Virus record (IMG/VR): IMGVR_UViG_2854418831_000003
Span: 15,958-79,957 of that record
Origin: a virus
Taxonomy: Duplodnaviria > Caudoviricetes
Direction: 5' to 3' (one strand)
DNA: 64,000 bases
Position numbers and translations under genes: made by a program. Every line of letters begins with the position of its first letter. Positions within the stretch are counted from its first letter, which is position 1. The notes under the pieces were generated by a model, which saw only the letters and a program-made list of their open reading frames with translations, did no database searches and was not told where the DNA came from. Positions 4,956 to 37,850 of this stretch are shown here, piece by piece.

Positions 4956-4957
4956 CT

Positions 4958-7357: not shown

Positions 7358-8824
7358 TTATACCCGTTTTACATAGTCCAGACTGATCCAGCCGGCTCCG
7401 GATTTCAGGCGGCCCCACTTGGTCGCTCCCTTTCCGTTCGCTTCCTCAACAATGGTATAGGTTCCTACTGGAATATGCTGTGTTTTGGCGTAGCCGGTTC
7501 CTGGGCCTGTCCGGATGTTCAGGTCCGTAATTTCAACGCGCACCTGGTACGGCCGGAATGCTGCCGCCGGATAAACCTGCTTGCCGTTCCAGTCGAACAC
7601 CTTATAACCTTTGTTCTGATCAGCGCACGCTTTGGCGTTGTCATAATTCTCAAAGGCTCCTTTCTGGCTTGCTGCATCCGTCCAGGTCTTGCGGACTCTG
7701 TAGTATTTCTTTGCAGTAGTTGGCTGCGTCGGCGTTGTCGGTGTAGCTGCTGCACCGCTTCCGATTTTTTTCTTGAAATCGCTCCATGCGCTCTCAGATC
7801 CGCTTGCGGAGTTCCATCCGTATACGCCAGGGCAATATTTGCCGTTTACATCAAAATGGCGGATAACCCTGGAAACGGGTACCCCGTACAGCTTCATGAG
7901 GTACTTAGTCAGCTCAATAGCGCTGTTGATCGTTGCCTGCTCAAAATACCAGTCTTTGCTGTTTGCGTTCTTGTTTCCTTTGTTTCTTACGCACATTTCA
8001 ATGGACACGCTGTTGGCATTTCTGGCCACGCCGTACAAGCTGCCGCCCTGGCTGGACTGTCTGCCGCCGCCTACAGCCCAACAGTAACGGGCTTTCGGGT
8101 TCGGGTTATACTGCCAGATTTCTCCCTCGAAACCGACGTAAAAATCAGCACTGGCCTGTGTCGTGCTGCGCTGATTATAATAGTCGATATTGTTCTTTGC
8201 GGTACCTGTTGCACCTACATAGTGGATAACAATGTACTCAATTCCTCCGCTGCGTGGGCTTGTGTTGTGTGTTCCGAAGTTCGGGTTCTGGTTAATTTTC
8301 AAGTTGCTCACTCCTCCCTTTGTTGCCTGGTCGTATTTCGTCAACTCATATTTGTTGATAATACTCAGGACTTTACTCACATACTTTGTATCTGTTGCAT
8401 ATCCGCCTGCCTTAATGATTCCGATAGCTTTCGCCGGATCCGTTTCTCCTTTCAGGCCCGCATAACGCTGTTTGCTGCCATTCATGGCGCCCAGTAAATA
8501 TGCGCTGTGGTCCGCCACACTGTCGGCAGCGCTCGCATATTTCCGGAAATCTGCTGTAATGGTGTATGCGTTTCCGTTCGCGTCCTCTTCTCCGGTCTGC
8601 TTCCGGTACTTGCTTACACCGTCCCAGGTGCTGCCTGGCCAGGTGTTCCCGGACAAACTGCATTTCATCCCGAAAAAGTTGTTGGCATTTCTGGCCAGCT
8701 CTGTGCTGCCGTAACCGGATTCCAGGACTGTCTGCGCCGTTGTTACTGAAGCCAGCACGCCACTTTTTGCCATGTCTGCCTGCGCCAGCGGTCCCATAAA
8801 GCTGATAAATTCCTGCTCTGTCAT
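7358..8824 (-). CDS. Endolysin: glucosaminidase + amidase_2 + SH3b-type binding domains
   Basis: AQTVLESGYG...NNFFGMK...GYATD (glucosaminidase), YIVIHYVG...SIEMC...RHFDVNGKYCP (Zn amidase), C-terminal LNIRTGPG...GWISL. Confidence 0.92.
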   Translation of the reverse strand: MTEQEFISFMGPLAQADMAKSGVLASVTTAQTVLESGYGSTELARNANNFFGMKCSLSGNTWPGSTWDGVSKYRKQTGEEDANGNAYTITADFRKYASAADSVADHSAYLLGAMNGSKQRYAGLKGETDPAKAIGIIKAGGYATDTKYVSKVLSIINKYELTKYDQATKGGVSNLKINQNPNFGTHNTSPRSGGIEYIVIHYVGATGTAKNNIDYYNQRSTTQASADFYVGFEGEIWQYNPNPKARYCWAVGGGRQSSQGGSLYGVARNANSVSIEMCVRNKGNKNANSKDWYFEQATINSAIELTKYLMKLYGVPVSRVIRHFDVNGKYCPGVYGWNSASGSESAWSDFKKKIGSGAAATPTTPTQPTTAKKYYRVRKTWTDAASQKGAFENYDNAKACADQNKGYKVFDWNGKQVYPAAAFRPYQVRVEITDLNIRTGPGTGYAKTQHIPVGTYTIVEEANGKGATKWGRLKSGAGWISLDYVKRV

Positions 8825-8853
8825 GTACGTCCCTCCCATAGGAAAAGGCGACC

Positions 8854-9180
8854 TTATCGGCCGCCCTGCGTGTTATTATCTGTTTTTTTCAACTGTGCAA
8901 TAGCCTGGATCACTTTATCGTACCCAACCATAGAAGCAAGCCAGGACAGCAGCACAAGTGCAATTAAATATACCGCCATCTTGTCGTTGATCTGCGTCTC
9001 CGTCAGAATCAGGTACCCGGCGCCTACTAGGGCGGACAGCACTACGGCCACGCCACCGGCCAGAAAATTAGAGTGGTACTTCACTCTCATTTCGTCCAGC
9101 AGCTTCTTAATGCCCTCGGTAAACAGTCCCGTGAAAATAGATACGATCATCAGTCCCAGTAAAAAAATTTCTAAAGTCAT
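8854..9180 (-). CDS. Holin-like membrane protein
   Basis: 108 aa with 3 hydrophobic segments, directly upstream of the endolysin. Confidence 0.7.
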   Translation of the reverse strand: MTLEIFLLGLMIVSIFTGLFTEGIKKLLDEMRVKYHSNFLAGGVAVVLSALVGAGYLILTETQINDKMAVYLIALVLLSWLASMVGYDKVIQAIAQLKKTDNNTQGGR

Positions 9181-9190
9181 GCTTTTCTCC

Positions 9191-9601
9191 TTATCCGATA
9201 CCCTCTCCGGTATCTGTGTTATTTTCCGGCTCAAAGTCGGCCGGATCGTCAGTTTCTGCCTGTCTTATGTTCATGTCGTACACAATGCCGCCCTTGGTGT
9301 TCTCTTTTGCGGATTTCTGCGCATACGCCCAAAACACCCCAAACATGGCCGCCGGTACGCCGATCAGTGCGTACAGTGCCGACAAGTCGAAGCGCATCCA
9401 CATAACAATTTCTGCATAGATCACTATCTCAATGCAAAGACCGTATATAACCGCCATCATAGCCTTGCCCCAGGCCGGTTTCTTCCTGGTGCGTCTCAGT
9501 CCCAGCTCGCGCTCTCGGTCGCGTACCTGCTGCCTCAGCTGCTGCTCCTCTGCTATCTGATCCAGCTCTTTCATGCGCTTCTCATATTTAATTTTGTTCA
9601 T
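9191..9601 (-). CDS. Lysis-cassette membrane protein
   Basis: Two hydrophobic segments after a basic N-terminus. Confidence 0.65.
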   Translation of the reverse strand: MNKIKYEKRMKELDQIAEEQQLRQQVRDRERELGLRRTRKKPAWGKAMMAVIYGLCIEIVIYAEIVMWMRFDLSALYALIGVPAAMFGVFWAYAQKSAKENTKGGIVYDMNIRQAETDDPADFEPENNTDTGEGIG

Positions 9602-9611
9602 TGGTACCGCC

Positions 9612-10166
9612 TCACTTTCTGCTACCCATCAGCTCTGCGATTTTCGCATCTTCGTGCATTGGAATTACTTCCAGTGCCCTCATTTCAGGTTGTACAGTCG
9701 TGTGCATGTGCCCGTCGCCGTTGGCGTTCTCATACTCTTTAAACATGGACCAAAATGCGTCTGCCTCCATTTCGCTCCATGCCTGCATGGGGTTCTTGTC
9801 CGGGTTCGTAAAATACCGGTGCGATTGTAATAGTCTGTCACGGAGCTTGCTGCGTTCTCGACTGGTGTTCTCTTTTTCGATTTTGTCCAGCTTTTCCTGC
9901 TGCTTTTCCATGCCCTCTTTCAACTCTGCAATACTGGTATTAAATTGCTGCTGGATTTCAAGGCTTTGCTGGTGCCATGTTGGATACATGTTTACCTGAT
10001 CCATTACTTTCTTAAACTGCTCATTTTTTTCCTTTTCATGGATCGCCTTATCAGAAAAATACTTTTCCACTTTCCGGTAACACAACCCCAGGAATACAAG
10101 CGCCGCAATTACGGTTATGGCCCAGCCTATGCTATAATCTCCTAGCAATTTGATTAAATAGTCCAT
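9612..10166 (-). CDS. Membrane-anchored coiled-coil protein
   Basis: N-terminal transmembrane segment and coiled coil; 184 aa. Confidence 0.65.
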   Translation of the reverse strand: MDYLIKLLGDYSIGWAITVIAALVFLGLCYRKVEKYFSDKAIHEKEKNEQFKKVMDQVNMYPTWHQQSLEIQQQFNTSIAELKEGMEKQQEKLDKIEKENTSRERSKLRDRLLQSHRYFTNPDKNPMQAWSEMEADAFWSMFKEYENANGDGHMHTTVQPEMRALEVIPMHEDAKIAELMGSRK

Positions 10167-10200
10167 TTTTTCGTATTCCTTTCTGCTCCATTTTCTGCAA

Positions 10201-10243
10201 AATAAAAGAACCGGCCAGGGCCAGCTCTGCGGTCAATTCTTTT
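10201..10243 (-). terminator. Intrinsic terminator downstream of the DGR RT
   Basis: AAAAGAA...TTCTTTT stem-loop with T-rich tail. Confidence 0.45.
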
Positions 10244-10251
10244 CACGGGTT

Positions 10252-10422
10252 TCATTCTTCTATGCCTCTCTGCAGGTCTGCCGCCTGCTGCATCATTGCC
10301 AGTTCTTCCTCTTCGATCATACCGTGCTGCAATAACGTGGCCGCCAGGCGGTCAATAACATTCCTTTGCAGCTGTATAATTTCCGACTGGGTTTCCAGTA
10401 CCTCAGCAATACACTGTTTCAT
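10252..10422 (-). CDS. Small helical protein overlapping the RT 3' end
   Basis: 56 aa MKQCIAEVLETQSEIIQLQ...; AGGAG SD; below the ORF-track cutoff. Confidence 0.5.
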   Translation of the reverse strand: MKQCIAEVLETQSEIIQLQRNVIDRLAATLLQHGMIEEEELAMMQQAADLQRGIEE

Positions 10423-11560
10423 AGTCAAGTGCTCCTGTTTCTCCTATTTCCATCACGTTTATGATCTGCTCCTCTCCGTTATCATCCGCATGGGTCAATA
10501 CAAATTCGTCCAGCAATTTTTCCTTAAATTTCTTACAATCCACATGGCTCAGCATGGCCAGGTAGCTCTGCATGGTTGCGTTTGCTTCTTTGAATGTGAT
10601 CAGGTTGTCATGGTAGTCCTGGCGCGTTTTCCGGAGCGTTCTCTTCATCCGAAGTGTTGTGCTCTTTCTCAGGATCACATGGTCGTTATAAATCACATAG
10701 CCCACAAACTCGCACCCAACCCGCACCGGCCGGAGTGCTGTCTTGTTGTTGAAATTTAAGTGCAGCCGCTCCTCTAAAAACTGTGTCATTCTTCTGCCGT
10801 ATTCTTTCAGGCGTTCCTTGTCATTGTCTAGGATTATAATGTCGTCCATGTACCGGATATACCGTTTTATTCCCAGTACCCTCTTACAAAACTGGTCAAG
10901 TGGATCCAGATACATGTTCCCCAGCATATGGGACAGGCCGCCGCCGATAGGTATTCCTAAATCATACAGCATTTGCTCCTCGGTAATTGTCAGCTGGTTT
11001 GCATCCAGTGGCATACCAAACGGAACCGCATCATTGTTTATGTAATACCCTAACAAGTCAACGGTTCGCGGATCATCTATCTTTTTCCTGCAAATATCCA
11101 TAAGTATTTCATGGTCAATGCGGTAAAAGAATTTTGCAACATCAAACTTGTAATAATACCATTCAGTTCCGGACGTCCTGGTTTCTCGCATCCAGGTATA
11201 AAGCTGTTCCATGGCTGCCAGCTGCCCGCGTCCCTTTACGCACGCATAGGTATGTTCTATGAACGTCCGGCATATTTTAGGATTCAGCACGTCATATATT
11301 GCCCGCTGCACCACTTTGGACCAGTAGTCAATAAATATAACTTTCCGCACCTTTGGCACGTATACATAAAAGCTGTGATATTCGACTTTTGGTACCTTTC
11401 CAGCCCTCAACAGAGTGCTTATTTCTTCCAGGTTTCCCTCTCTATTGTCGTAAAATCTCAGCCTCTCCGTGTTCTCCCTTTTGCCCTTTGATACGTGGGT
11501 ATCTGCGACCATTAGTGTGTGAAATGAGGTTATTTCATAATATACGTTTCTAATTGTCAT
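10403..11560 (-). CDS. DGR reverse transcriptase
   Basis: YYYKFDVAKFF, GIPIG, YIRYMDD, EFVGY motifs; adjacent to TR and avd. Confidence 0.95.
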   Translation of the reverse strand: MTIRNVYYEITSFHTLMVADTHVSKGKRENTERLRFYDNREGNLEEISTLLRAGKVPKVEYHSFYVYVPKVRKVIFIDYWSKVVQRAIYDVLNPKICRTFIEHTYACVKGRGQLAAMEQLYTWMRETRTSGTEWYYYKFDVAKFFYRIDHEILMDICRKKIDDPRTVDLLGYYINNDAVPFGMPLDANQLTITEEQMLYDLGIPIGGGLSHMLGNMYLDPLDQFCKRVLGIKRYIRYMDDIIILDNDKERLKEYGRRMTQFLEERLHLNFNNKTALRPVRVGCEFVGYVIYNDHVILRKSTTLRMKRTLRKTRQDYHDNLITFKEANATMQSYLAMLSHVDCKKFKEKLLDEFVLTHADDNGEEQIINVMEIGETGALDYETVYC

Positions 11561-11777
11561 ATTTTTTTACAGTGGTGCAGGTTTCGCTGTATTCTACTTC
11601 CGGATGGGCCAGCGGCTCCGCTTTCGCAAAACATAACCCACGCACAAGGGACTCCCCTTGGTGCCATCACTGCTGTTTTCCTTTTTCGCTCATTGTAAAG
11701 CGCGGGGACGAGATCCTTTATCCCCCTGCACTGCCAGGGCGTCCGTGGGCGCTCCTGTATCTGGCGTATGGGGGTAG

Positions 11778-11896
11778 AGCGGAGCGCCAGCCGATGTTCA
11801 CGTTCACGTTGCCGCGGTTCGTCCAGTTGCCGTTACTGTAACCGACACCCGCGTTCGTGCCGTTGCCATAGTTGCCACCGGAGTTGAACAAGCGCT
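11778..11896 (-). repeat. DGR template repeat (TR), 119 bp
   Basis: Matches 12373-12491 at 107/119 positions; contains 10 AAC codons in the target frame. Confidence 0.96.
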
Positions 11897-11917
11897 ATAT
11901 CCCATTCCCTACGTTAT

Positions 11918-12289
11918 TTATTTTTTAACGCTCGCCATCCATCCGCCGAGCATTCTTCCTATCTCATTTACCTTTTCGCTCCATTGCTTATATTTCTTGA
12001 AATCTATATATTTCAACCTGTATGAAAGACGAACGTATTTTCTCAGCTTGTCAATTTCCACATCCAGCTCCTGCAAAGTAGTTTTCTTGTAATACTTTTT
12101 ATTTGCTTCAATGGTTCTTTCCATTGCCTGGTCCATACATCGCTTTATGTCTGCCGCTAAAACAAATCTTTCATACTTTGGATACGCATTTAGTACCGGA
12201 TAGGCGTATAACATCATATCTTCAATTTTTCCTAAAATCAGGAGGGGATCTCTGTCCCCATCCTGATTTTCAATCTGTACCTCTTCCAT
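11918..12289 (-). CDS. avd: DGR accessory variability determinant
   Basis: 123 aa four-helix-bundle pattern YPK.ERF.L...I...LQELDVEI..LR...NEIGRMLGGW. Confidence 0.92.
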   Translation of the reverse strand: MEEVQIENQDGDRDPLLILGKIEDMMLYAYPVLNAYPKYERFVLAADIKRCMDQAMERTIEANKKYYKKTTLQELDVEIDKLRKYVRLSYRLKYIDFKKYKQWSEKVNEIGRMLGGWMASVKK

Positions 12290-12342
12290 GTTCCTCCTGC
12301 ATCTAGTTGGCCTTATCGGTCCGCTATCGCGTCCCTATCAGA

Positions 12343-13443
12343 TTACAGGCCAACAGATTCCAGATCCACATAAGCGGAGCGCCAGCCGATGACCACGCTC
12401 ACGCTGCCGCGGACCGACCAGATGCCGGTACTGTAACCGACACCCGCGTCCGCGCCGTTGCCATAGTTGCCACCGGAGTAGAACAAGCGCTCGTCTGCAA
12501 CGTTATTGAACCACAATCTGTCGTCGTCATAATCAGACGCTTTTGCTCCGTCTACCGGCAGTAAGCCGTATGCTCTCAGCACTGCCTTTGCAGCGTCGGA
12601 AATGTCTGCGGAACAAGTTAAAGCTCCCAGCGCGCAACTAAAGTTCTCAGAGGTCTTTGTAATGGTTTTACACCACTGGGCGCCGCCAGTTCCTGTTGCG
12701 TCAATCTTAATACTGTTCGCGGTTGTTCCGTTTCCATCCGGAGTAATAAATGCACCGGTGGTTGCGTCAATGGCTTTCCATGCGGTACTTGTCGCTGTCT
12801 GCGGGTTGTCGCTGTTGGCGCCGTTATTGTTTTCAAGTAACTGCAGCTCTCCTTTTACGGTGCGGAGCGCTCCGGTCCACTCAGAAACATTTCCGTTCAG
12901 GTCCCAAATTCCATCAGGCTGTTTATTGTGTGACCAGGTCAGCGGGCCGGTACCGGTTAAAACATGGTAAATTTTTCCTGCATCTGTTCCGCTTCCATAG
13001 GTCGCCGGAATAGCCTGCTGCAGCGTCTCTCTGCTGTCCTTGCCATAGTTATTGTTTCCCCATGGCTGGAAGCCGTTCTTTTTACACCAGAGCATAATTG
13101 CGGCCCACTCTGCCTTAGTCATCATGTGCCAGCCTTTTCCCTTAGATTCACAATATCCTCTGGCAGTGTCCCAGGTAATATTTACAGTCGGATCCTGGCC
13201 AGGCAGGGAGTACGCACGGCCATTATTTACAATGTTCTGGTATTTACTGATCCAGATTCCCGGTACCTCTTTACCATTCACGATAAAGGCTGGGTGTGTG
13301 CTGTCTCCGGCGCCGTCGATCACGTCGCTCATTTTGAACTTAGGCACGTAAACCATAACGGACGGGATTCCCTTGTCGTCATAAATCAGCTTGTTATTAG
13401 GTGCTACCATTTTCAGGGCAAATTCTGCTAAATCGTACTGCAT
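12343..13443 (-). CDS. DGR target: C-type-lectin/FGE-fold putative receptor-binding protein
   Basis: HMMTKAEWAAI, GIWDLNGNVSEW motifs; C-terminus is the VR ending GWRSA; sits at the distal end of the tail module. Confidence 0.9.
   Translation of the reverse strand: MQYDLAEFALKMVAPNNKLIYDDKGIPSVMVYVPKFKMSDVIDGAGDSTHPAFIVNGKEVPGIWISKYQNIVNNGRAYSLPGQDPTVNITWDTARGYCESKGKGWHMMTKAEWAAIMLWCKKNGFQPWGNNNYGKDSRETLQQAIPATYGSGTDAGKIYHVLTGTGPLTWSHNKQPDGIWDLNGNVSEWTGALRTVKGELQLLENNNGANSDNPQTATSTAWKAIDATTGAFITPDGNGTTANSIKIDATGTGGAQWCKTITKTSENFSCALGALTCSADISDAAKAVLRAYGLLPVDGAKASDYDDDRLWFNNVADERLFYSGGNYGNGADAGVGYSTGIWSVRGSVSVVIGWRSAYVDLESVGL
12373..12491 (-). repeat. DGR variable repeat (VR), 119 bp
   Basis: 12 differences from TR, all at TR adenines (6 A>G, 5 A>T, 1 A>C); diverges from TR after GGCTGGCGCTCCGCT (IMH/IMH*). 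Confidence 0.96.
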
Positions 13444-13446
13444 ACC

Positions 13447-13812
13447 TTATTCCTCCTCTTCATCATCAGCGGCAACCGGATTTTCCAGTCCCCACAATGT
13501 CACTGTAACCTGGCTCATGTCCAGCGGTTTTGCCACCGGGGCTGTGCCGCCCTCTTCCTGGCCCTCTGCTGCCGGTTGCTGTTCCTCGTATTCCTTTGCC
13601 GGGATATCAACCTCAGCGACATAAAAAAGGCCGTCGCCGGTTCCCATGGTCAGGTCTCTGTCTGCGTCCATACAGATATCTTTGTGCACTGGCCAGTCTT
13701 TCTGGTACTTGTTGCACTTAATTGTCAGCATGTCGTCAAAGCACAAATTGTAGCCTTTTTCTGTGTACGGGATTTTCTCCCCCGCGTTCTTTTCAATAAC
13801 CTTTACGCTCAT
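13447..13812 (-). CDS. Tail-region hypothetical protein
   Basis: 121 aa, coupled to its neighbours. Confidence 0.7.
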   Translation of the reverse strand: MSVKVIEKNAGEKIPYTEKGYNLCFDDMLTIKCNKYQKDWPVHKDICMDADRDLTMGTGDGLFYVAEVDIPAKEYEEQQPAAEGQEEGGTAPVAKPLDMSQVTVTLWGLENPVAADDEEEE

Positions 13813-14348
13813 GCGTACATACCTCCTCTAACTTTGTATTTAACCTTTACAGTCTTAGCACTTCCCTCAAATTTCAGTTTGAAACCGTTCAGCTGCTTGT
13901 CATATACGATCACATCCCCAACCTGGCCGCCTGCTACTTCCACGACCTCAATATCAAGGTCATAGTTCATAGTTTTGCGGACCGTCTTTAATGCAATCGT
14001 GCTGCCGCTGTTATTAAAGCCGAAAAATACCTTGTTGGTATTGTTCAGGGTAACGGTTCCGGTCTCTGCCGAAAACTCAGCGTCGTGGTGATCCAGCCGC
14101 TCGTCAACCTCCTTTTCTCGTGCCTCAACATAGTGCATTTGATACTGCATAAAAATTGCAGCGGCCACATGGGCGTCATGGATTCCGTTTTCCATGTGGT
14201 TGAAATTGGTTGCGCTCTGCGGGGTTCCCTGCTGCATCACGGTACCTGGGGACGGCTCATGTTCTACTGTGCCGTCAGAGTTCTGCGTCTCTTTGTACCG
14301 GTATGGGTACTGGACAACCTCGTCTTTCCATGGTGTCATACCATACAT
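13809..14348 (-). CDS. Tail/baseplate-associated protein
   Basis: 179 aa; QGTPQSATNFNHMENGI motif typical of tail-fibre attachment domains. Confidence 0.7.
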   Translation of the reverse strand: MYGMTPWKDEVVQYPYRYKETQNSDGTVEHEPSPGTVMQQGTPQSATNFNHMENGIHDAHVAAAIFMQYQMHYVEAREKEVDERLDHHDAEFSAETGTVTLNNTNKVFFGFNNSGSTIALKTVRKTMNYDLDIEVVEVAGGQVGDVIVYDKQLNGFKLKFEGSAKTVKVKYKVRGGMYA

Positions 14349-14366
14349 AGGTCTTTGCCTCCTCTC

Positions 14367-14672
14367 TTATACCTCTGTAATTTCAATAGTAAAGCGGTAA
14401 AACACACCCTCTTGCGTGCTCTTTCGGGTAATGTTCTCCGTTTTTGTCAGCCACAACTTGCCGCTGCGGTTGTACAGCTGCACCTCTGCGATTTTTACGG
14501 TGCCGCTCATGGTGGGATCTATTGTAAAATCAATAGCCACCTTGCCCGTGCTGTCCACGTAAATGTCTGTAATTTCCGCCCTGTAATAGCTGCTGTTAAT
14601 CTTATACATGGCGTGGGAAACTGTCTTTTTTACATGGTCCTTAAAGCCGTTCATGGCGTCTGCTGTCAGCAT
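14367..14672 (-). CDS. Baseplate-associated protein
   Basis: 101 aa from MLTADA, AGGAGG SD. Confidence 0.65.
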   Translation of the reverse strand: MLTADAMNGFKDHVKKTVSHAMYKINSSYYRAEITDIYVDSTGKVAIDFTIDPTMSGTVKIAEVQLYNRSGKLWLTKTENITRKSTQEGVFYRFTIEITEV

Positions 14673-14686
14673 GTGCTCCTCCTTTC

Positions 14687-15466
14687 TTAGAGCCGTGTAG
14701 CTCCGCAAATTTTATACACAATACCGGCGGATTCTCCGGTAATGCGAGCATTTACTCCTGGGGCGGTCATTTCTCCGATTGTGCTTACATCCGGATAAGT
14801 TCCTGCCCGTTTCTCTTCTCCTGGCGTCGGGTATGTGAACGCCTGGCCTGTTGCTTGTGGTGCAACGTCAACCTCTAAAGGCTGCAGTGCTCCTGGCCGG
14901 TTCACATCTGGCCGGGTTCCGGCTATAATATGCCGGAAAGAAAAATTCATACCCGCGGGCCGCACTTGCAGGCGAACAGGTGTTTCAAAGACAATCCTCA
15001 CGTGCTTCTGGGACTGCTTAACCTTGTAAATTTCTTCTGCAACAGCGGCCAGGTCAACGTTGCTGCTGCCCGGCCGGATAATGACTTCGTATGTGTGCGG
15101 TGCTACGTTTTCATAGATTTCAACCTCCCGCCCGGAAATTTCTGCAACCAGGCCTGCAATACGATACGGGTTCATAGGGCGTTTTGTGTTGCGTTTCTGC
15201 ACAATCGGACGCCGCCTTTCTTCCAGGCTCTTGCCCTCGTTTCCTGTGATTCCGTAACGTTCTTCCCACCAGGGGAGTGACCAGGTTGCTGTTTCCGGAA
15301 ATGCCTGGTTTTTCATATCTTCCACTGTCTCGCGTGCAAGTTCCATGGATGCCGCCATGACCTGGAAAATCCATTTACCAACATAGGAGCGGTCATAGAT
15401 CGGGCTTATCATGCTCAGCATGTCTTTTGCAGTTTCCCTTGTAGGGAAGTTTTCCAGATCCATCAC
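14687..15466 (-). CDS. Baseplate wedge protein (DUF2313/YmfQ-like)
   Basis: FPETATWSLPWWEERYGI motif, directly after the baseplate J gene. Confidence 0.78.
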   Translation of the reverse strand: MMDLENFPTRETAKDMLSMISPIYDRSYVGKWIFQVMAASMELARETVEDMKNQAFPETATWSLPWWEERYGITGNEGKSLEERRRPIVQKRNTKRPMNPYRIAGLVAEISGREVEIYENVAPHTYEVIIRPGSSNVDLAAVAEEIYKVKQSQKHVRIVFETPVRLQVRPAGMNFSFRHIIAGTRPDVNRPGALQPLEVDVAPQATGQAFTYPTPGEEKRAGTYPDVSTIGEMTAPGVNARITGESAGIVYKICGATRL

Positions 15467-16599
15467 TCAGCCCCCTTTGCTTCAACATTTTCTGTATACG
15501 GATATTCGTCGTTTTCAATGCGAATATTGTCCGTGCTGCCATTGATCAGCAGGTCTGTAAAGTCCTCGACGCCTGGCGTTCCGGTCAGCAGCGCGTGCAC
15601 TTTTATGTACTTCACTGCTCCCTCATCCGCCACGATTTTATAATAGCTTTCCAGCTGCTTTTTAAATCCGGATATAACGGTGCTCAGTTCAAACCCATCT
15701 GCCACCGTAACCGTAAAGGAATACGATATGTTTACCAGGTCCGGCGCTGCTACCGTCAGGATTGTGTTTGGCGGCGCCAGTCGGTCTGCGGGGTTGTCTG
15801 GAGCCATAATATAATTGTAAACTGCATCCAGCAGGGTCTTGTTCGCACCCTCGCCGTTCTGGTCGAGGCATACAATTTTTACTGTTTCCGGCCCGTTCCA
15901 TTCCGGGATAACAATCGCGTCCCCGATTCCGTCTACTGCCTTAGCCCACCGTTTATAATCGGCATTGTTGCCTATATAACTGGTTTCCTCCGAGGCGTCT
16001 GCTTCCAGGATTCTTTCTCTTAAATCGTCGTCACTTTCTTCCTCGGTTCCTCCGGTGGCTTTTTCTTTGTTCGTAACCGTCTGGATTCCCTCAACTGGTT
16101 CCGACATTAAAACAATAGCGCCGGCATTTACGTTTGATTGCTTTCCGTCAAGTAACGCACGCACCAGCACGGTACCTTTTCCCTCTTCGTTCAATATGCA
16201 GCTTTCAACTGCCGCAAATTCAATGGACGGCTGATCGTTCTTGGCTTCTGTCGCAAAAACAGTGCCGCCCGGTACTATGGTGCCCGGTTCGCCTGTCAGC
16301 GTCAGCACTGCTTCTGCATAAGTGGACGCTTTTCTCTTTGTCTGTGACCCAGCTGCCAGGTAGTCCAAAAAGCTGCCACTGCTCCACTGTGGGAACATCA
16401 GTTTTATTGCTTCCGGAATATAAAACTGCAATAGCTCTGCTGCGATCAGTGCTGTGGGCCTTGTAAAATCCCACGGGAAGCCGCCCTCAGTCTTGTCAAT
16501 GTCATTCGGAAGCTCGTCCATCATTCTTGCGTGGATCGTGTCCGCGTCACAATCCTCCAAAAATTCAGGTACAATAAAATCACTTGCCAACTCTCTCAC
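15463..16599 (-). CDS. Baseplate J/gp47 family protein
   Basis: GTEEESDDDLRERI, DYKRWAKAVDGIG, PEWNGPETVK motifs. Confidence 0.9.
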   Translation of the reverse strand: MRELASDFIVPEFLEDCDADTIHARMMDELPNDIDKTEGGFPWDFTRPTALIAAELLQFYIPEAIKLMFPQWSSGSFLDYLAAGSQTKRKASTYAEAVLTLTGEPGTIVPGGTVFATEAKNDQPSIEFAAVESCILNEEGKGTVLVRALLDGKQSNVNAGAIVLMSEPVEGIQTVTNKEKATGGTEEESDDDLRERILEADASEETSYIGNNADYKRWAKAVDGIGDAIVIPEWNGPETVKIVCLDQNGEGANKTLLDAVYNYIMAPDNPADRLAPPNTILTVAAPDLVNISYSFTVTVADGFELSTVISGFKKQLESYYKIVADEGAVKYIKVHALLTGTPGVEDFTDLLINGSTDNIRIENDEYPYTENVEAKGAE

Positions 16600-19334: not shown

Positions 19335-22300
19335 CTATGCCTCCTGTATAAGCGGCATGTTTGCAAAAATTTTGCTCATGCGCTCTGCGATCTCGTCTCC
19401 CAGGTCGTCTGCCATTTCGCGGATCCGGTTTTTCATAACTTCAAAGACCTTTTCCTCGTCCATGTTTCCGCCCTCGATCTTAATAACTGGACTCATGTCC
19501 ACGTTAATCTCAAAGTTGTTGTTGCCCTGCTGTCCCTGCACTGCTGCATTGACAGAAACGGCTTTCTTGCCCTCGGATTCCTCTTCGCTACTATCCCCCG
19601 ACATTTCCTGGCCGGTTACACTCCACACGCTCTTGCTTTCGTCCTGTGGCTGTGCCTGCAATGGCAAAATGGTATTGCTGGCCAGTTCTTCGCCGCCAGG
19701 CCCTACGATTCCGCCGTTTGCGTGGGCTGCAATTTCTCCATTGCTGTCCAGCACGCCCAGGTCCTCGCCTGCCTGCTGCCACAACGCAATGCCGCGGCCA
19801 CGTCTGCCCGGTACCGTCGGGATAACATACTCTTTGCCCTCTTCTCCTAACCAGGATAATTCTGCGCCATGCAGGCCCACCTCTCCACCGTTTGCATGTC
19901 CGGCAATGGATACAGAAACTGTTGATCCACTGCTGTGCGTGCTCAGTGAAGCGCTTGGGTTCGTGATATGGTAGGAAACTGTTACATTTACAGAAGCCCT
20001 TGCAGAATAAGGGGAGTTAAAAGCTGCTTGCAGCTCACTACCTACTTGGCTGTAAACTGCTGCTATATTGTCGCTGGCTTTCTCGATTGTCACATCCGTG
20101 CTGCCATTGGTCTGCATAGTGTTGGAAAATGTATTATCAAGTTCCGCCTGTGCAGATGTGGCTGCCGGTGTTGCATCCGTGCTGCCTGCTTCTACGGTTA
20201 AATTGGTGGTCATTGTGGTGTCTGTGGTGTTTGTTTCACTGCTCAGAGCTGCCTGCGCTGCCTCTTCCACCGGTGTTGTGTCTGTGGATCCGGCTGTCGT
20301 TGTCACGTTTACCTGCTTCTCAACAGTCGTGTCCTCACTTCCGCTTGCTGTGCTCTGCTCCACTGCTGCCTCAATGCCGCTTGTGTCTACCTGTACCAGA
20401 TCGGACGGTATAGTTACCGTTGCCCCGGACTGTACCTGTATACCGGCACCGCTCAGGGTTCCGGTTTCCATTCCCAGGGCCGCCTCTATCTGTGCCATGG
20501 CTGTTTCAGAATCAACCTCAACGTTTGCCAGATCCACCTTTACACCGTCAGCAGTAACAGAAAACTCTGCACCCTCTGCGGTCAATGCGGACATAGCCTG
20601 GTCAATGGCTGTTTTGGCTGCGTCTCCGTCAACCTCTGCTGTCAAGTTATCCATGGAAATTTTCAGCTCGTCGCCTGCATGAATAATATACGGGCTTTCA
20701 ATGCCGTTTTCTTCGGCTATTGTCTGCCAGTCTATTCCCAGGGCGTTGCCGATCTCCCATAAGCAATCCCCAGCCTTTACCTTAATGGTTGCGCCCTCTG
20801 CGGTCACGTCCTCGGTTTCGGCCAGGTCGCCCAGTTTTTCGTTTAAACTGGAAACCCATGCGTCTTTGTCAATGTCCACGCCGTCAACTTCCGCTTTCAG
20901 ATCTCCCAGTTCCACCGGTTCGTCTGTAACAGAAGCCGTTGCACGCTTCCAGGCTGCTGAAAATTCCTCACCCAGCTGCCCGTTGGCATCCATCTTACTT
21001 ACCGCATCAATCAGGGCTTTGTCCCCGGAATCTGCAATGCTTTTTGCGTATACGTCCCAGGCTGCGCTTGTATCTCCGGAAGCAGCACCGATGGCCATAG
21101 TCTCGTTAAACTTGTCCATGATCTGCTTTGGCACATCCTGGCCAACTTTTACATATTCGTCCACCAGGCCGCGCATGGAGTCTGCATCTGGTTTCATGGC
21201 TTCCCACACCTTTTCAAGTGCGTTCTGGTCGCCACTCTGTAAGAATTTCCAACCGCCGCCCTGCTGTGCGTAATCCGCACCGAACATGTTCAAGTGATCA
21301 TACAAGCTCTGCATGTCTTGGTTGTTCAGGTAATTCTTTAAATAATCAACCTCATTTCCCATGCTTTTCTTTGTCTTTCCCTGGTTTGTTGCGATCAGGT
21401 CGCCATAAGTACCGCCCAGGGTGTTGTTTTCAAAGTCCAGGCTGGTCATGAGATCGTTTGCCTTTTGGTTTCTAATTGCCTGGCTGGCCAGGTCTTTGTA
21501 ATGCTCATTCTGCCGCTTTGTAATTCGTCCAGAAGCCTCCGCGGCATTTAAGTATGAATAAAATTCTGTTGCCAGCGCCTGGGTTTCATCTGCTGCGGTT
21601 TCTCGCTGATCCGCCAGGGCTTCCACTACCGAAGTAAAGGAGTCTGCAGTCAGGTCTTTGCCGCTCAGGCTGCCGTATTCCTGGTTGATCCAGTCAAGCT
21701 GTGCCTGCGCTTCCGCCTGATTCCATTTGCTGGTTATGCTGTTCATTTTATCCTGTAAAGCTGCCACTGCCTGCGCTTCGTCAACATCAATAATGCCGTC
21801 CTGCAGCGCTTCCTCCACGGCAGTTTTCAGGTCATTGGATAGATTGGTCAGTTCCAGGTGGTCTGCTCGCGCCCATTCCTCAATACTGCTCGCCAGGCTT
21901 TCACCCTCCTCAGTACCTCCCAGGAATGTCTGCACGCTTATATGAGCCGCAAATGTCCGGCTTTCAAGCTCGGAAATTTTGCTTTCCACAAAGGTTGTTA
22001 CATTGTCCTTATAGGACTGTTGCTCGTCAGCGGTCAGCTCAATGCCGACGCTGCTTTTCCATGTCAGTGCCTGGTTTGCTTGCAGTGCTTCCTCTGCTTT
22101 CTTTCTCAGTTCGTCGGCGTTCTTAAATTCATTGATCGCCATCTCAACATTTACCAGGTACTTTGCGTTTAAGATTCCGGAAGCTGCTTCCTCTGCCTGC
22201 TTCGCGCTCAGCTCAATACTGCCAAAATGGTTCGCCAGGCTGTTGCTGATCTGCTTCTCGTTATAGTTATCTATGGCCACACCGATAGCAACCACGGCCG

Positions 22301-24655
22301 CTGTAATTGCCGCCGCTGCAATGCCAACCTTTCCGGCCATAGGAATCATGGATCCCAGGTCGCTCACAAAAGCGCCAACTGTCGGAGCTGTCTGTGCTGC
22401 CATCCCTATGTTTTTAATCGCGCTGCCAATAGGGGACAAGGCTTTCACAATACTGCCCGCTCCGCCGATCAGGGACGTTGCTCCTTTAGCAATCAGTCCA
22501 GCACTCAGCCATGAAGTCAGACCGGCCTGTTCGCCGCCCGGCATAATCTTTGCAGCTTCTCCAAACAGGCCGCTCAGTCCTTTTGATAACAGGTGTTTGC
22601 CCTTACTGCCGGCCCATTTTGTAAATGGCTCTGCGATCAGTGTGTCCCATGCAATATCAACCTTTCCAAACAGGTCTGCGTTTTGCCATTCCTGGGAGTT
22701 GGTCATACCGCTCACGGTTCTCTTGATTCCCTCGGCTTTACCGTCAACAAAGTCCATCAAATTTGTAAGCGCTGCTGTTGCTGCCGGTGTTGCGTCTGTA
22801 ATCGCGTCCACAACTCCACGGATGTACGGTGTCAGCCTCTTGCCAAAACTGTTCTGTACGCCCTCAACAGCGGACTGCATAAGTGTCATGGAACAAAGCA
22901 GATTATTATGATCATTTCATGATTACACTCAACAGCGGACTGCATAAGTGTCATGGAACCCTCTAGGTTATCCAGCATAGTGTCTGACATGTCCTGCGCT
23001 GCTCCGTCCGCATTATAAATTGCGTCGCTCAGCTTGTTATAATCTTCCTTAGAAGCATTGATAATAGCCAACATTCCAGCCATTGCTTCCTTGCCGAAAA
23101 TGGTGCTGGCCGCTGCTGTCTGTTCAGTCTCAGAAAGTCCTCCCAGGCTGCCGCGCAAGTTATCCATGACACCTTTCAGTGTTTTCATGTTTCCGGAGCT
23201 GTCGGTCAAGCTGATTCCGTACTTCTCCATAGCTGTTGCCATGCTGTCAGTAGGTGCTGCCATATTCGCCAGGGAAGTCTTTAAGGCTGTACCGGCCATG
23301 CTTCCCTTGATGGAACTATTGGCCATAAGCCCCAGTGCCATGGATGTATCTTCAACGCTGTACTTCATTGCTCCCGCCACTGGCGCAACGTATTTGAATG
23401 ATTCTCCCAACATACCAACGTTTGTGTTTGCGCTGGCGCTGGCTTTTGCCAGTACATCCGCAAAATGTCCGGAATCGCTTGCCTTTAGGCCGAATGCCGT
23501 GAGCGCGTCGGTTACAATATCGGAAGTGGATCCCAGGCTCTCGCCGCTGGCTGCTGCCAGGTTCATAATACCGGAAATACCGGAGATCATCTGTTTCGGC
23601 TGCCAGCCCGCCATTGCCATGTAATTAAATGCCTCAGCTGCCTCTGTCGCTGTAAACTTGGTCGTTGCTCCCATTTCCTGGGCTTTTGCTGTCAGGTCCT
23701 CAAACGCCTGCCCTGTTGCTCCGGAAATAGCCCCGACCTGGCTCATCATGCTTTCAAAGTTTTTGTAAGTGTTTACCGTATCGCCCAGACCTACACTGAT
23801 ACCTAGTGCCGCGCCTGCCTGTGTCAGCGGGTTCTTTGCAGCGTTTATTATTGCCGTCAGAGGTGCTGTGGCTGCATCCACGACGCTCACTGTTGCCGTC
23901 CAGACGCTGCCGTCCCAGGCTGCTGCCTTATCCCGCACACTATCAATAACCGGGCTTGCGTTGTCGTCTGCTCCCAGCTGCGCGGATCCGGAACTTCCGG
24001 AAAAATTCTCAACAGCGTCCTCTGCTGCTCTTACGATCGGGGTGGCGTTATCATCCGCCCCCAGCTCCGCTGTGGCGCTCATGCCGTCCAGCATTTCCGT
24101 GGCGTCCTCCGTCGCTCGTATTGCCTGGGTGGCGTTGTCGTCTGCTGTTAGCTCTACGGTTGCCACATCCCCATCCAGGGACGCCAGCGCGTCGCCCGCG
24201 TCCCTTATCTCCATGGTGGCGCTATCATCCGCGCTTAACCCCACAACCGCCTCATTGCCATTCAAGGCGGTCAGTGAGTCGCCCACGTCGTCAATAATTC
24301 CGGTTGCGTTATTGTCTGCTCCCACTTCAACATCCGAGGAGGTGCCGTCCAGGGTTGCTGCCTGGTCCGCTACGTCGCTCAGGGTTCCTGTGGCTGCGTT
24401 GTTCACGTCTACGTCAACGCTTGGGCTTACGCCGTCCAGGGATTCCGCCTGATCAGATACCCGGCTCAGTCCCTGGCTTGCGTTGTCGTCCAGCTCAATA
24501 TCAATATTGTGCGCTCTTTCCAACCGATCAAGGCGGCGCTGTGTGCGGTCCCACGCACGTTCAAACGCCGTCAGGTTTCTTGTGGCCGACTGCACACCAG
24601 CACCGGTGCGGTCAACCGCTTCTATCGGAATTTCAATAGTTAATGTTTCGGCCAC
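19335..24655 (-). pseudogene. Tape measure protein gene split by a 65-bp insertion into ORFs 22886-24655 and 19335-22889
   Basis: TP901-type TMP core (FESMMSQVGAISGA...GATTKFTATEAAEAFNYMAMAGW); removing one 32-bp repeat copy plus the 33-bp insert restores a 5256-bp frame (1751 aa) reading LDNLEGSMTLMQSAVEGVQ. Confidence 0.92.
22863..22959. repeat. 32-bp direct repeat - 33-bp unique insert - 32-bp direct repeat
   Basis: CTCAACAGCGGACTGCATAAGTGTCATGGAAC at 22863-22894 and 22928-22959, flanking AAAGCAGATTATTATGATCATTTCATGATTACA. Confidence 0.97.
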
Positions 24656-34008: not shown

Positions 34009-34431
34009 TTAAGTGTCCGTGCGGTGTCCTTTTCGCCTGTTCTCTTCCATCTCCCAGGCTCCAATTTCTGCCACGCGGCTGTTTGGCCAGTTCTTCCGGT
34101 ACCAGAAATGCAGATCTGCTGTATTCTGGCAGCACTCAGCAATGTCCTTGCCCTGCGCGATCCACTTCCAGGTTTCTTTCCGGAATGTCTTAATATCCAG
34201 TGCAGAAAATTTATAGGTGCCGCCTCTGGCACCCATTACACTGTCATTACATTCAAACTCAAAATAGTCCCCGGTGTCCTTGATCACTTTTCCGGTCAAG
34301 GCCCATATACCGGAATCAGGTACCGCAAAATGCAGGCGCCCGTCCCGTGGATCCACAATAGGCTGTACGGCCACATTAAACATGCCAGGCATGTGCGGCT
34401 GTTCAAACCAGTATGCTTTTCTATAATCCAT
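34009..34431 (-). CDS. Hypothetical protein, candidate MuF-toxin immunity protein
   Basis: 140 aa; TAATG overlap with the MuF stop. Confidence 0.65.
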   Translation of the reverse strand: MDYRKAYWFEQPHMPGMFNVAVQPIVDPRDGRLHFAVPDSGIWALTGKVIKDTGDYFEFECNDSVMGARGGTYKFSALDIKTFRKETWKWIAQGKDIAECCQNTADLHFWYRKNWPNSRVAEIGAWEMEENRRKGHRTDT

Positions 34432-37400
34432 TACAGTTCACTCCCTACGGTTATAAATTTTTCAATATCAATGCCGTTAATATCCATTATACCCCGTGCT
34501 CGAAGTTCACTCAACAGGTGCTGCCTTTCATATCTGCTATTGCACATGATTTCTGTAAAATATCGGCTGTCTATTCCGTTTCGGAACATAATTTCATTAC
34601 TTCCAGCAAAACTGCTTTCCATGTTCTTGACAAACTGTTCAGGGCTTGCCCCGTATTTACTTATATCTGCAACTTTTCCAAACTTATCCCCACCAAAAGA
34701 GTAATAGTCTGTACGTTCCAGGACTGCGGTACTCATTTTTATCTGGTAGTCTCCCGCTACACTGGCGTTGGAAAACTTTCGCTTTGCTTTCTGTGCGCTT
34801 CCGGTCACAAGTCTGGTAAACGCGTTATCAGCTCCGCCGGTTCCCATATCAGAGTACATGCTGGCACCAGCTGGCTGCTGTATGCCCTGCTTGATTCTGC
34901 TCATGGTGGACGAAATTCCGCCGCTTTGCAAAATTTTTATAACGTCGCCCTCTCTGGAAACGCTATGGTAAACATACTTTGCACCGGCCTTTTCCAGGTC
35001 CTTTGCAAGTCCAGGCACCACATAGGTTATATAGCCGTTGTATTCGCTCTGGAGCTTCATACTGGCCAGCTGCACCACATTGATATTTTCCTGGGCGATT
35101 ATCTCGTCCAGTTTACTTACCAGTCTGCTGCCTGCCAGGTCTTTCAGTTCGTCCACACGGCCAGGGGCTTGTGACCACACAAGCCTTGCCTTTTTCAGGG
35201 TTTCCTCTGCTGCTGCCGTTGGCGTCCTGGCTACTTCGTCCAGGCCTACCTTTTTCAGCAGCTCCGTGGCTTTTTTGGCGTCCGCTATGCCGTCTCCGCT
35301 GCTTCGAACACGGATTCTAAAATACCCGTCCCAGGAATGCAGGCTTTGGCCGCTGTACAATTCAAAGGACGCATACTTTGGATCATAGGAATCCAGGTAG
35401 GTAACAACCCCGTGTATGTTTGCTTGAGTTTCAACCAGTGTGTTGCTGGTCCATGCTCTTGCCGTCGGGGCCGTGGTTTCAAAGCTCATGTTGATACGCT
35501 GCGCTGGGACCGTCGGGTTTGCCCCGTCCATCCTCTGCAGCACATCATCCCAGGCGCTAGACCTCAGCTTTCCGGTAATCTCATAGTGCACGTCTCCGTC
35601 TATGATCATACGGCGGGCGCTCAGGTTCATGCCCTCAACCTTGTCCGCGTCGCTCCATACCGCCTGCCCCTGCTTCGGTCCTGGGTGTATCTTGTCAAAA
35701 TCTGTAAATACATCCTCGGCCGTTTTGGTCCCTGGAGGCAGGTGCCCGGTGTTGGTCGCTGCCGGTGCTTTCGGTGTCGCCTTGGCGTTTCTGGCCGCCT
35801 GGTTGGCCGCCAGTCTGTCCCGTACATCCTTGCTGCACTGTTTGGCCTTTACCGGGTCGGACAAGCTGTCAATGAGCTGTTGCTTGTTCATGTTGTTGCA
35901 ATAGGCAATGTTTTGGGCCTTGGCCATCTGCAGCAGATCTGCCTTTCCCATCTTTTTCAGCGCTGCCGCATCATGCGTGGCTGCCTGGATGGTCTTGGCC
36001 GTGTTCTGCGCTTCGTCCGCCCACACAAAAGCTGCCTGTTTTTTACCGGTTCGCTGGGTCAACAGGTCCGTGTAAAATGTCCGGTATGTTTCCCGGAGGT
36101 TCTGCTTTCGCTCCACAATGGCATCCAGCAGCTGCTCTGCATCCTTTCCCTTGCCTTTCAGGCTTTCAGCATAGCCCCGGAATATTTCTCTGTATTCCTT
36201 GTCAGGTATTGCCTCGACCCGTTTTATATATGCCAGGGTGTCCTGCGGGTTTAGATCCAGCTCATTGTTGGCATACTTCCGGAAAACAGTGTTGTACAGC
36301 GGTTCTGTTTCGCCATACTTGCTGTTGGGATGGTATGCGTATGTCATTTTTCCGCTGGCCTTGTCGGTAATGTACCGGAAAGACTGTTCTTTGTCTACAC
36401 CGATCAGCTGCCCGCTGGTATCTGTTACAAAATTGCCGCCGTGGCTGTCATAGTTCCCCAGCAGCCAGTCTGTAACATGTTCCCGCTGTATCTGCTGTAC
36501 CTGGTCAGCTGTCAGGCCTTTGGTGCCATACTGCTGCCACGCCTTGAAGTCGAACCCGTTCGGGTCCACGTCAATTTTCTGCTGGTATGCACCAAACTGG
36601 CCGCCTATGTGTCCGGTGCCAACCTTGACGGCCGTGTCCGGATCCACAATGCCCTGCACCTTGTAACCAGCTTCCTGCACATAGGCCCGGAACTCTTCCG
36701 GTGTGCCGCTTTTGGACTGTGCCGGTTTGAAAAGCCATTCCGTGCCGCTGTCATCCTCGCACAAGTGCATTTCTCCGGTACCGCCCAGGTGTGCCAGGCC
36801 TTTGTCTTTCATTCCCTGCGGCATTTGCAAGCTGTCAGGGATGGACGGTGTCGCCGGATCCGGAATGTTTGGCCCCGGTACCTGGCTCTGTGCCGGCTGT
36901 ATTACCGGCGGGGAAATCTCCCTATACTCAACTGCACACCTGCACTGCGGATGTGCCGGTGGCGTCAGCCTTTGCCCTCCAAAAAGTAATTTATTCAGCT
37001 TAAAATTAAAATCGTCGTCTATGCCTATCGTCTGCCCCTCTAACCCGTTACAGATATCACAAACGCCGTCGTCATAAGCTGTTGACCATACCTTTTCCAC
37101 AACGCCCATAAGGCCCTGCGCCTGGGCCATCTTTACTGCTTCATACTCGCCGTGCTGATATGCGAATGCCATTTCTGTCTCCGCTATCATGTTAGCACGG
37201 TACCGGTGCTGTTGCGCTGCGTACTTGGCCGCTGCTTCCTGGGCTTTCTTGGCCGCTGTGGCCTCTTTCATGCCTGGATTATTCTTTAGCAAGGAATCTT
37301 TCACATGATCGTAATAGTTCGCGTTTGCAATAGCCTGGCGCTGTGTCAGGCCTATGCACGGACGTATTGCCCTGGATAATTCCTCCGCGCTCTCCCCTTT

Positions 37401-37850
37401 GCTGTACGCTCTGGCGATCAGGGCGCTCACTGCGTTCTTTTGCTCGGTGCTTATATTCGTTACAAACTCCGCGCCGTGCTCTTGAACCCACTTCGTTACC
37501 CCTGGCCATGTGTGATCAAAGAAAAAACTGTCATGCTGTTCCTGCACGCCCAGGCTTGCTGTTTCCATAGCTTTAACCCATACAGGGGACAGCTTGTCGC
37601 TTACCATCTTGCTATAATCCTGCTGCCACTGTTGGAAAGTGCTTTCGCTCATGTGGCCGTTCATTATAGCCTCGCGGATTTCCTTGTAGGTAATTGCATT
37701 TTGCTGGTTGGTCCATGTGCTATGCAAAATATATGCCGGTTCAGCGGACGCCGCGTTCAGGAAGCTGTTCAGCTTGTTCAGCGCATTTTGTCCGCCCTGG
37801 CTTTTCTTCTTGCCAGTCGCTTTGCGGATCCGTATTTTCTTAAATTGCAT
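34431..37850 (-). CDS. MuF (gpF-like) minor head protein with kinase-like, Rho-N-like and ADP-ribosyltransferase-like C-terminal domains
   Basis: MuF motifs RANMIAETE, VCDIC, PPAHPQCRC in aa 1-310; extra domains described in findings. Confidence 0.88.
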   Translation of the reverse strand: MQFKKIRIRKATGKKKSQGGQNALNKLNSFLNAASAEPAYILHSTWTNQQNAITYKEIREAIMNGHMSESTFQQWQQDYSKMVSDKLSPVWVKAMETASLGVQEQHDSFFFDHTWPGVTKWVQEHGAEFVTNISTEQKNAVSALIARAYSKGESAEELSRAIRPCIGLTQRQAIANANYYDHVKDSLLKNNPGMKEATAAKKAQEAAAKYAAQQHRYRANMIAETEMAFAYQHGEYEAVKMAQAQGLMGVVEKVWSTAYDDGVCDICNGLEGQTIGIDDDFNFKLNKLLFGGQRLTPPAHPQCRCAVEYREISPPVIQPAQSQVPGPNIPDPATPSIPDSLQMPQGMKDKGLAHLGGTGEMHLCEDDSGTEWLFKPAQSKSGTPEEFRAYVQEAGYKVQGIVDPDTAVKVGTGHIGGQFGAYQQKIDVDPNGFDFKAWQQYGTKGLTADQVQQIQREHVTDWLLGNYDSHGGNFVTDTSGQLIGVDKEQSFRYITDKASGKMTYAYHPNSKYGETEPLYNTVFRKYANNELDLNPQDTLAYIKRVEAIPDKEYREIFRGYAESLKGKGKDAEQLLDAIVERKQNLRETYRTFYTDLLTQRTGKKQAAFVWADEAQNTAKTIQAATHDAAALKKMGKADLLQMAKAQNIAYCNNMNKQQLIDSLSDPVKAKQCSKDVRDRLAANQAARNAKATPKAPAATNTGHLPPGTKTAEDVFTDFDKIHPGPKQGQAVWSDADKVEGMNLSARRMIIDGDVHYEITGKLRSSAWDDVLQRMDGANPTVPAQRINMSFETTAPTARAWTSNTLVETQANIHGVVTYLDSYDPKYASFELYSGQSLHSWDGYFRIRVRSSGDGIADAKKATELLKKVGLDEVARTPTAAAEETLKKARLVWSQAPGRVDELKDLAGSRLVSKLDEIIAQENINVVQLASMKLQSEYNGYITYVVPGLAKDLEKAGAKYVYHSVSREGDVIKILQSGGISSTMSRIKQGIQQPAGASMYSDMGTGGADNAFTRLVTGSAQKAKRKFSNASVAGDYQIKMSTAVLERTDYYSFGGDKFGKVADISKYGASPEQFVKNMESSFAGSNEIMFRNGIDSRYFTEIMCNSRYERQHLLSELRARGIMDINGIDIEKFITVGSEL

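Follow-up and report, generated by a model that had tools for sequence, protein, structure and literature searches.

A prophage tape-measure gene split by a 33-nt fragment of a co-resident conjugative element: a probable case of ectopic Cas1-Cas2 integration

The DNA analysed here (the window, 64,000 nt) comprises positions 15958-79957 of the virus record IMGVR_UViG_2854418831_000003, a single contig of 79,957 nt, and holds a contractile-tailed prophage with Mu-like head genes. The tape-measure gene of this prophage is split by a 65-bp addition, composed of a second copy of 32 bp of the gene itself and a 33-nt segment identical to part of an antirepressor gene of an integrative conjugative element (ICE) located on the same contig. 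We consider it probable that the scar was made by ectopic integration by Cas1-Cas2, whatever the subtype. The best explanation as a whole, in which the host Cas1-Cas2 put a prespacer from the ICE into the tape-measure gene and type I-B is the most likely source of the enzyme, is judged probable. An earlier note, made from the sequence of the window alone, had proposed that ectopic Cas1-Cas2 integration split this gene, and the core of that idea is supported by the spacer-sized insert, the repeat-sized duplication and the absence of both from relatives. To our knowledge, integration of this kind is well shown in the laboratory and has rarely been caught in nature with all of its parts visible.

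Comparison of the window with itself revealed identical 32-mers at 22863-22894 and 22928-22959 (CTCAACAGCGGACTGCATAAGTGTCATGGAAC), with a start-to-start spacing of 65 nt; the length of this exact repeat and its spacing make a chance origin in 64 kb impossible. The first copy of the target-site duplication (22863-22894, not assigned to a strand) is native tape-measure coding sequence. The second copy (22928-22959, likewise without strand) follows the spacer-like insert, which occupies 22895-22927 on the plus strand (AAAGCAGATTATTATGATCATTTCATGATTACA; 33 nt, 8/33 G+C or 24%) and represents 11 codons of the ICE antirepressor gene in sense orientation, copied exactly. The exact 32-bp repeat around 33 bp of low G+C content, and the reading of the insert on the plus strand as the open fragment KADYYDHFMIT, had both been described in the earlier note and were borne out. 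A repeat-length duplication of the target (32 bp) lies flush with an insert of spacer length (33 nt), as in an ectopic Cas1-Cas2 product, and the 65-nt unit falls inside the periods of the CRISPR arrays of this lineage, 64-69 nt for type I-B and 65-69 nt for type I-C. No mutation is seen in the insert or in either copy of the repeat. A different parse of the scar, as 30 + 35, was dismissed: in the window the 33-mer is followed by CT, in the donor by GG. No other scar of like geometry was detected. The sole other repeat with a period of 66, at window 59506-59595, is a 24-nt exact direct repeat (59506-59529 and 59572-59595, 42 nt apart) inside a gene for an SbcC-like ATPase of 651 aa; it was discarded as a comparable scar, since the protein that contains it has the same length, 651 aa, as the 14 others listed in its cluster.

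The tape-measure gene is located on the minus strand and is split into two open reading frames (ORFs), 22886-24655 and 19335-22889. The N-terminal fragment (22886-24655, minus strand, 589 aa) carries the minor-tail/tape-measure domain PF10145 PhageMin_Tail (E 1e-58) and consists of 576 native residues followed by a 13-residue out-of-frame tail (CNHEMIIIICFVP). The C-terminal fragment (19335-22889, minus strand, 1184 aa) includes a LysM domain and starts at the duplicated Met568 (MTLMQSAVE...). The break comes after residue 576, and the TGA of the N-terminal fragment overlaps the ATG of the C-terminal fragment (ATGA). Deletion of one repeat together with the insert (65 nt) gives a single ORF of 1751 aa, as had been claimed before, and this restored ORF is 99.4% identical to a 1751-aa relative (P0003) over the full length and without gaps. 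In the protein cluster at 90% identity, of 1964 members, the 14 others listed are all full-length, between 1722 and 1754 aa and mostly 1751 aa, and each of the exact split fragments is recorded on just a single contig. With the 65 bp added, the frame is shifted and a 1751-aa protein is divided into pieces of 589 and 1184 aa. Even with translational coupling by way of the ATGA overlap, it is unlikely that the pair of fragments acts as a single ruler in the tail tube, and since the frame shift splits the tape-measure protein, the prophage is probably unable to build tails. Nothing here shows the duplicated sequence to be a substrate of Cas6, and for this reason the scar cannot function as a CRISPR unit. 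The reading of the event as prophage grounding, in the sense of a function, goes further than the data, in which nothing points beyond an accident.

The source of the insert was found outside the window. An exact reverse-complement copy of the 33-mer (33/33) is located at contig positions 2341-2373 on the minus strand; it is the only other occurrence on the contig and lies 36 kb upstream of the insert, in inverted orientation. The ORF that contains it (contig 2089-2865, minus strand, 258 aa) codes for an antirepressor with Bro-N and KilAC/ANT domains and belongs to an ICE, the gene content of which includes a VirD4/TraG coupling protein, DUF3801, RepA_N, ParA/ParB, NikA and a tyrosine integrase. 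The sequence context is GCAGCCA-(33-mer)-GGAGAA in the donor and ATGGAAC-(33-mer)-CTCAAC in the target. The match stops sharply at both ends: the flanks differ from the first base, with zero bases shared at either junction and no microhomology, as for an exact protospacer copy taken from a mobile element. In the orientation of the insert, the donor segment is directly preceded by 5'-CCA (...GCAG-CCA/AAAGCAG...). The earlier statement that no source is present in the window is true of the window, while an exact copy exists elsewhere on the same contig. The accompanying view of foreign DNA cut from another genome was not borne out: the insert is not foreign to the cell, because the donor ICE lies 36 kb from the interrupted prophage gene.

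Close relatives carry the unoccupied site. Two IMG/VR contigs (L002 and L003) contain a single 32-mer and lack exactly 65 nt, and the isolate Ruminococcus sp. AF41-9 (L005) also has the empty site, with one mismatch in the 32-mer; the exact 32-mer gave 0 matches in genomes of the species. Logan contigs of four public runs all join 22862 directly to 22928 ('skips 65'), with 32 nt that fit on either side. The flanks of the empty-site alleles are 88-99% identical to those of the window (99% in one of them), and in all four runs a different contig holds the 33-mer, within its native antirepressor sequence. The same insertion, the search for which in relatives had been set as a check, was not found in the viral contigs, the isolate or the four runs compared, and the phage collection gave no near match to the tape-measure region. 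Only contig PSQG01000006.1 of the NCBI assembly GCA_003324155.1 yielded the insertion allele; the viral record takes up its positions 48-80004. The empty-site alleles show that the insertion is derived, and it is recent as well, since neither the insert nor either repeat copy has a mutation.

For identification of the host, an exact-protein walk out of the prophage was carried out; it got no further than 6 kb into the host flank and yielded 4.9 kb of host DNA (L036) with guaA and a Na/Ala symporter. In a comparison with 301 genomes of the family, identity to this flank was 97% for G040 (over 3.8 kb) and 88% for AF41-9; because of the former match, G040 is probably a representative of the host species. 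The 80-kb contig itself contains no CRISPR array and no cas gene detectable by TRF, repeat scans, Rfam or Pfam. G040 and AF41-9 each possess exactly one Cas1, in a type I-B locus with the operon order cas6-cas8b-cas7-cas5-cas3-cas4-cas1-cas2. In G040 the type I-B assignment was confirmed with NCBIfam (Cas1b TIGR03641, 447 bits against a cut-off of 304; Cas8b1/Cst1, Cas7/Cst2, Cas4 and Cas6), and the intact operon is accompanied by an array of 33 repeats. The collection lists an identical type I-B Cas2 in 447 blocks, and the locus has one and the same chromosomal setting at each of the ten places shown, which suggests that type I-B is a core locus of the species. The many samples with this Cas2 did not include the host, a result that says nothing on the cas content of the latter. 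The type I-B repeat is always 30 nt in length (GTATTAATAGAAACATAGTGGAATGTAAAG; 12 arrays), and the 196 unique spacers from these 12 arrays are of 34-39 nt (one of 46 nt), none being of 33 nt. Within a type I-B array, an insertion sequence (IS) with an rve-family transposase was observed in two metagenome contigs of the host species (L050:10923-12118 and L051:11802-12997).

The protospacer-adjacent motif (PAM) of this system was derived with whole arrays as BLAST queries against phage genomes. The search gave nine distinct protospacers, found in records of human-gut phages and read in the orientation of the CRISPR RNA. The PAM is 5'-CCN and mostly CCA (CCA seven times, CCT once and CCG once), and the spacer begins directly after it. 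One protospacer is preceded by CTA in one phage record (MT835739.1) and by CCA in another (MT838775.1), a difference that could be a PAM escape variant. The donor of the insert has CCA immediately 5' of the captured segment, while CCA stands beside a random 33-mer of the contig, on either side, at 3.4% of positions. The PAM test is independent of the geometry of the scar, and favours capture by the type I-B module.

On this basis the following course of events is proposed. A host Cas1-Cas2 complex would have captured a 33-nt prespacer from the antirepressor gene of the co-resident ICE, and integrated it at a non-CRISPR site in the tape-measure gene of the neighbouring prophage instead of the leader-proximal repeat of an array. 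Two strand transfers, one per strand and 32 bp apart, followed by gap repair would leave 32 bp duplicated on each side of the insert, by the same chemistry that duplicates a CRISPR repeat. The enzyme would most likely be the resident type I-B Cas1b-Cas2-Cas4 module of the species, because of the type I-B PAM CCA directly 5' of the captured segment. In that case the integration was an aberrant one, the duplication being of 32 bp in place of the normal 30 and the spacer of 33 nt in place of the normal 34-39.

A number of points weigh against this proposal. Both the identity of the enzyme and the presence of a type I-B system in the host strain are what we infer, and Cas1 in that strain is taken from the species representative. 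A canonical type I-B event is 30 + about 36 and the scar is 32 + 33; neither the 30-bp duplication nor the 34-39-nt spacer is present, and a type I-B origin needs two simultaneous departures because 0 of 196 spacers are of 33 nt and all repeats are of 30 nt. The 33-mer was not found as an array spacer: the viral contigs show it only in its native ICE context, it is absent from AF41-9 and G040, and two metagenome scans for it outside its native flanks gave 0 matches. Spacers of 12 type I-B and 4 type I-C arrays showed no real match to the contig and no sign of priming or targeting. The junction, moreover, rests on one assembly, GCA_003324155.1.

The resemblance of the target to the type I-B repeat bears on the same question. 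On the minus strand the target reads gg/GTTCCATGACACTTATGCAGTCCGCTGTTGAG/, so that gg/GT...TGTTGAG/ can be compared with tgg/GT...TGTAAAG/ of the canonical type I-B unit; the two share the GG/GT junction and the ...TGTnnAG end. In tests made post hoc and on two strands, the minus-strand target agreed with the type I-B leader plus repeat at 17/40 positions (1.6% of contig positions score as high), and at 15/30 with one 2-nt gap (2.5%, p=0.025), and agreed with the type I-B junction nucleotides at 6/9 (0.9% of positions). As the tests were chosen after the site had been seen, p is about 0.02-0.05 when the two strands are allowed for, and the resemblance counts as weak support. It carries a further difficulty: in the best-resembling (minus) orientation the spacer is flipped relative to the PAM, which is plausible, if unproven, at a site without a leader. 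With Cas1b of Haloarcula hispanica, the duplication extends from about 10 bp upstream of one mid-repeat motif to about 10 bp past the midpoint of the GTGGG motif at positions 18-22, and its length became 29, 31, 32 or 33 bp when the motifs were spaced differently (PMC4872114). The repeat of the species studied here has GTGGA at positions 18-22. The Haloarcula motif data and the resemblance of the target reduce the mismatch in the duplication; they do nothing for that in the length of the spacer.

The geometry is accounted for directly if an accessory type I-C Cas1-Cas2-Cas4 module of this strain performed the same integration, since the lengths are then canonical; the earlier note had favoured this subtype, and we regard it as unlikely. 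In four genomes of the genus, the type I-C arrays show a repeat of 32 nt (GTCGCTCCCCTCGCGGGAGCGTGGATTGAAAT) and spacers of 33-37 nt, of which 26/111 are of 33 nt, so that the 32 + 33 of the scar is canonical for the type I-C arrays of the genus. Carriage by the strain is plausible because Cas8c (PF09709) was found in 16/58 genomes of the genus searched, and the last 12 nt of the plus-strand target match the end of the type I-C repeat at 7/12 (p=0.015). On the other hand, resemblance of the whole target to the type I-C leader plus repeat is not significant (p 0.08-0.23), and G040 and AF41-9 lack Cas8c, their only Cas1 being that of type I-B. The PAM expected for type I-C systems in general is 5'-TTC; a TTC beside the donor had been suggested as a check, and the donor proved to be flanked by CCA on one side and TCC on the other, the nearest TTC being displaced by 3 nt. 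For two type I-C arrays no protospacers were found from which a PAM could be derived. One type I-C Cas2 allele is present on six contigs, none of them of the host, and says nothing on the cas content of the host. When PAM, geometry and the prior chance of presence are weighed together, type I-B comes out roughly three to five times as probable as type I-C. If the host also carries type I-C, the prespacer may have been picked with the type I-B PAM and integrated by the type I-C integrase; such cross-talk of adaptation modules would explain the type I-B PAM and the exact type I-C geometry together. For the most specific form of the type I-B proposal, namely that the scar is a natural and datable record of Cas1b-Cas2-Cas4 inserting a PAM-proximal ICE prespacer with a 32-bp stagger into a prophage structural gene and thereby disabling the phage, we see an even chance.

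Explanations that dispense with Cas proteins have to account for the same features. A tandem duplication with a 33-nt insert might arise from a staggered double-strand break or stalled fork with captured filler, or from template switching in replication. No cas gene is present on the 80-kb contig, Cas1 of the host strain is deduced from a relative and not directly seen, and the prophage encodes RecT and, in its diversity-generating retroelement (DGR), a reverse transcriptase, all of which could be cited in favour. Against such a route, microhomology is absent from both junctions, the donor is 36 kb off and inverted, and its CCA flank, a 3.4% chance event, would be a coincidence; we consider this origin very improbable. 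Even less credence is given to an assembly or sequencing artefact, by which the 65 bp would not exist in the organism. The allele is recorded in a single assembly and no public run examined has it (in the best run, with 0.77 of the sampled words, the empty site and a separate ICE contig are found), but its absence from these runs does not bear on the reality of the junction. Joining the tape-measure gene to the ICE sequence requires junction-spanning reads, and an artefact is rated low because an assembler has no overlap there with which to create the junctions. A precise duplication flush with a precise 33-nt copy is not a collapsed or chimeric repeat either, and the PAM flank of the donor would again be a coincidence.

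Other classes of element were considered and rejected. A bona fide CRISPR array is ruled out, the repeat being tape-measure coding sequence common to all relatives, without an Rfam CRISPR family or cas genes on the contig. Insertion of an IS or transposon is marked by terminal repeats and/or a transposase together with a short (2-15 bp) target duplication, and the known duplications of IS, Tn7, Mu and casposons are of 15 bp or less; here the insert is a piece of an antirepressor ORF without terminal inverted repeats, and the duplication is of 32 bp. Insertion by the DGR was excluded because it would leave adenine substitutions, and none is present in an insert 33/33 identical to its donor. No transposase, casposon, tyrosine or serine recombinase or repair route known to us leaves 32 duplicated bp around a fragment of 33 nt without terminal repeats, nor do we know of one that would also fetch the fragment, in the absence of homology, from a site 36 kb off and in inverted orientation.

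The prophage is integrated beside guaA and encodes a sheath protein, baseplate J, Mu Gp48, a Mu-type portal, MuF, a terminase, RecT, a CI-like repressor, an endolysin and a DGR. The DGR occupies window 10403-13443, with the reverse transcriptase at 10403-11560 (minus strand), an Avd-like gene of 123 aa and a target protein at 12343-13443 (minus strand) with an FGE-sulfatase/C-type-lectin fold. The MuF-like head protein (34431-37850, 1139 aa) is extended at the C terminus by a long stretch with a Rho_N-like segment in it. The phage family is widespread in gut metagenomes, its repressor being present in 443 blocks of the collection, and its occurrence beside guaA in at least 5 different host gene contexts suggests that it has several host species. 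Three integrase-bearing elements, namely the ICE, a small mobilisable element and the prophage, are stacked beside guaA (contig 1-15957 plus window 1-4700). In the ICE, six tandem 23-nt iterons lie at contig 6612-6746, beside the gene for its RepA_N/DUF6017 replication initiator. The mobilisable element carries TnpV, Mob_Pre, an AAA_25 ATPase, an integrase (window 2475-3590), a ParE toxin and a double-ABC ATPase of the ABC-F type (contig 12304-13884).

The scar is an unusually complete natural example of a known process. Donor, PAM, target, empty site in relatives and damage are all visible for one genome. As a single event in a single genome, it gives no indication of selection or function. 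If Cas1-Cas2 made the scar, the CRISPR adaptation machinery acted here as an insertional mutagen; adaptation then has a mutagenic cost that can hit resident mobile elements, and acquisition, like interference, can cripple a prophage. The disagreement between a type I-B PAM and a type I-C-like 32 + 33 geometry makes a testable question of how Cas1b measures the second cut on DNA that is not a repeat.

The closest parallel in living cells is the off-target integration by type I-E Cas1-Cas2 in E. coli (Nivala, Shipman & Church 2018, as described in PMC7054753, PMC6698737 and bioRxiv 10.1101/148544). As described there, spacer-sized DNA entered a non-CRISPR chromosomal site and a repeat-sized duplication gave a repeat-spacer-repeat unit, as here. 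That work, in the same descriptions, was done in the laboratory with over-expressed Cas1-Cas2 and supplied oligonucleotides, whereas the present event is natural, in a gut Lachnospiraceae-type host and probably by type I-B or I-C, with the donor found in the same genome and a prophage structural gene as the target. The type I-B system of Haloarcula hispanica (Wang et al. 2016, PMC4872114) has the same Cas1b family (TIGR03641), a 30-bp repeat and a GTGG motif at positions 18-22, as in the species studied here. The Haloarcula work used engineered repeats in an array, while the present target is unrelated coding sequence with a weak resemblance to the motif, and the spacer is shorter than normal.

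Off-target integration has also been observed in vitro with Cas1-Cas2 of Pyrococcus furiosus and Streptococcus thermophilus; the DNA entered was again non-CRISPR, and the sites had features in common with repeat borders (PMC6698737, PMC6895254). The S. thermophilus enzyme prefers guanine at the attacked position, and the minus-strand target described here begins and ends with G. Those reactions took place on plasmids and were mostly half-site, in contrast to the completed and repaired full-site event in this genome. Off-target acquisition has been proposed as one origin of isolated or orphan mini-arrays (Shmakov et al. 2020, as cited in PMC13142298). As far as that citation describes them, these are likewise natural units of two repeats and one spacer, located away from cas genes and revealed by single-copy relatives. 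The seeds in that survey reportedly resemble the true CRISPR repeat of the genome. Compared with orphan mini-arrays as so described, the unit in the tape-measure gene is formed from coding sequence of marginal resemblance to a repeat, it disrupts a gene, and its donor protospacer with the PAM is present in the same genome.

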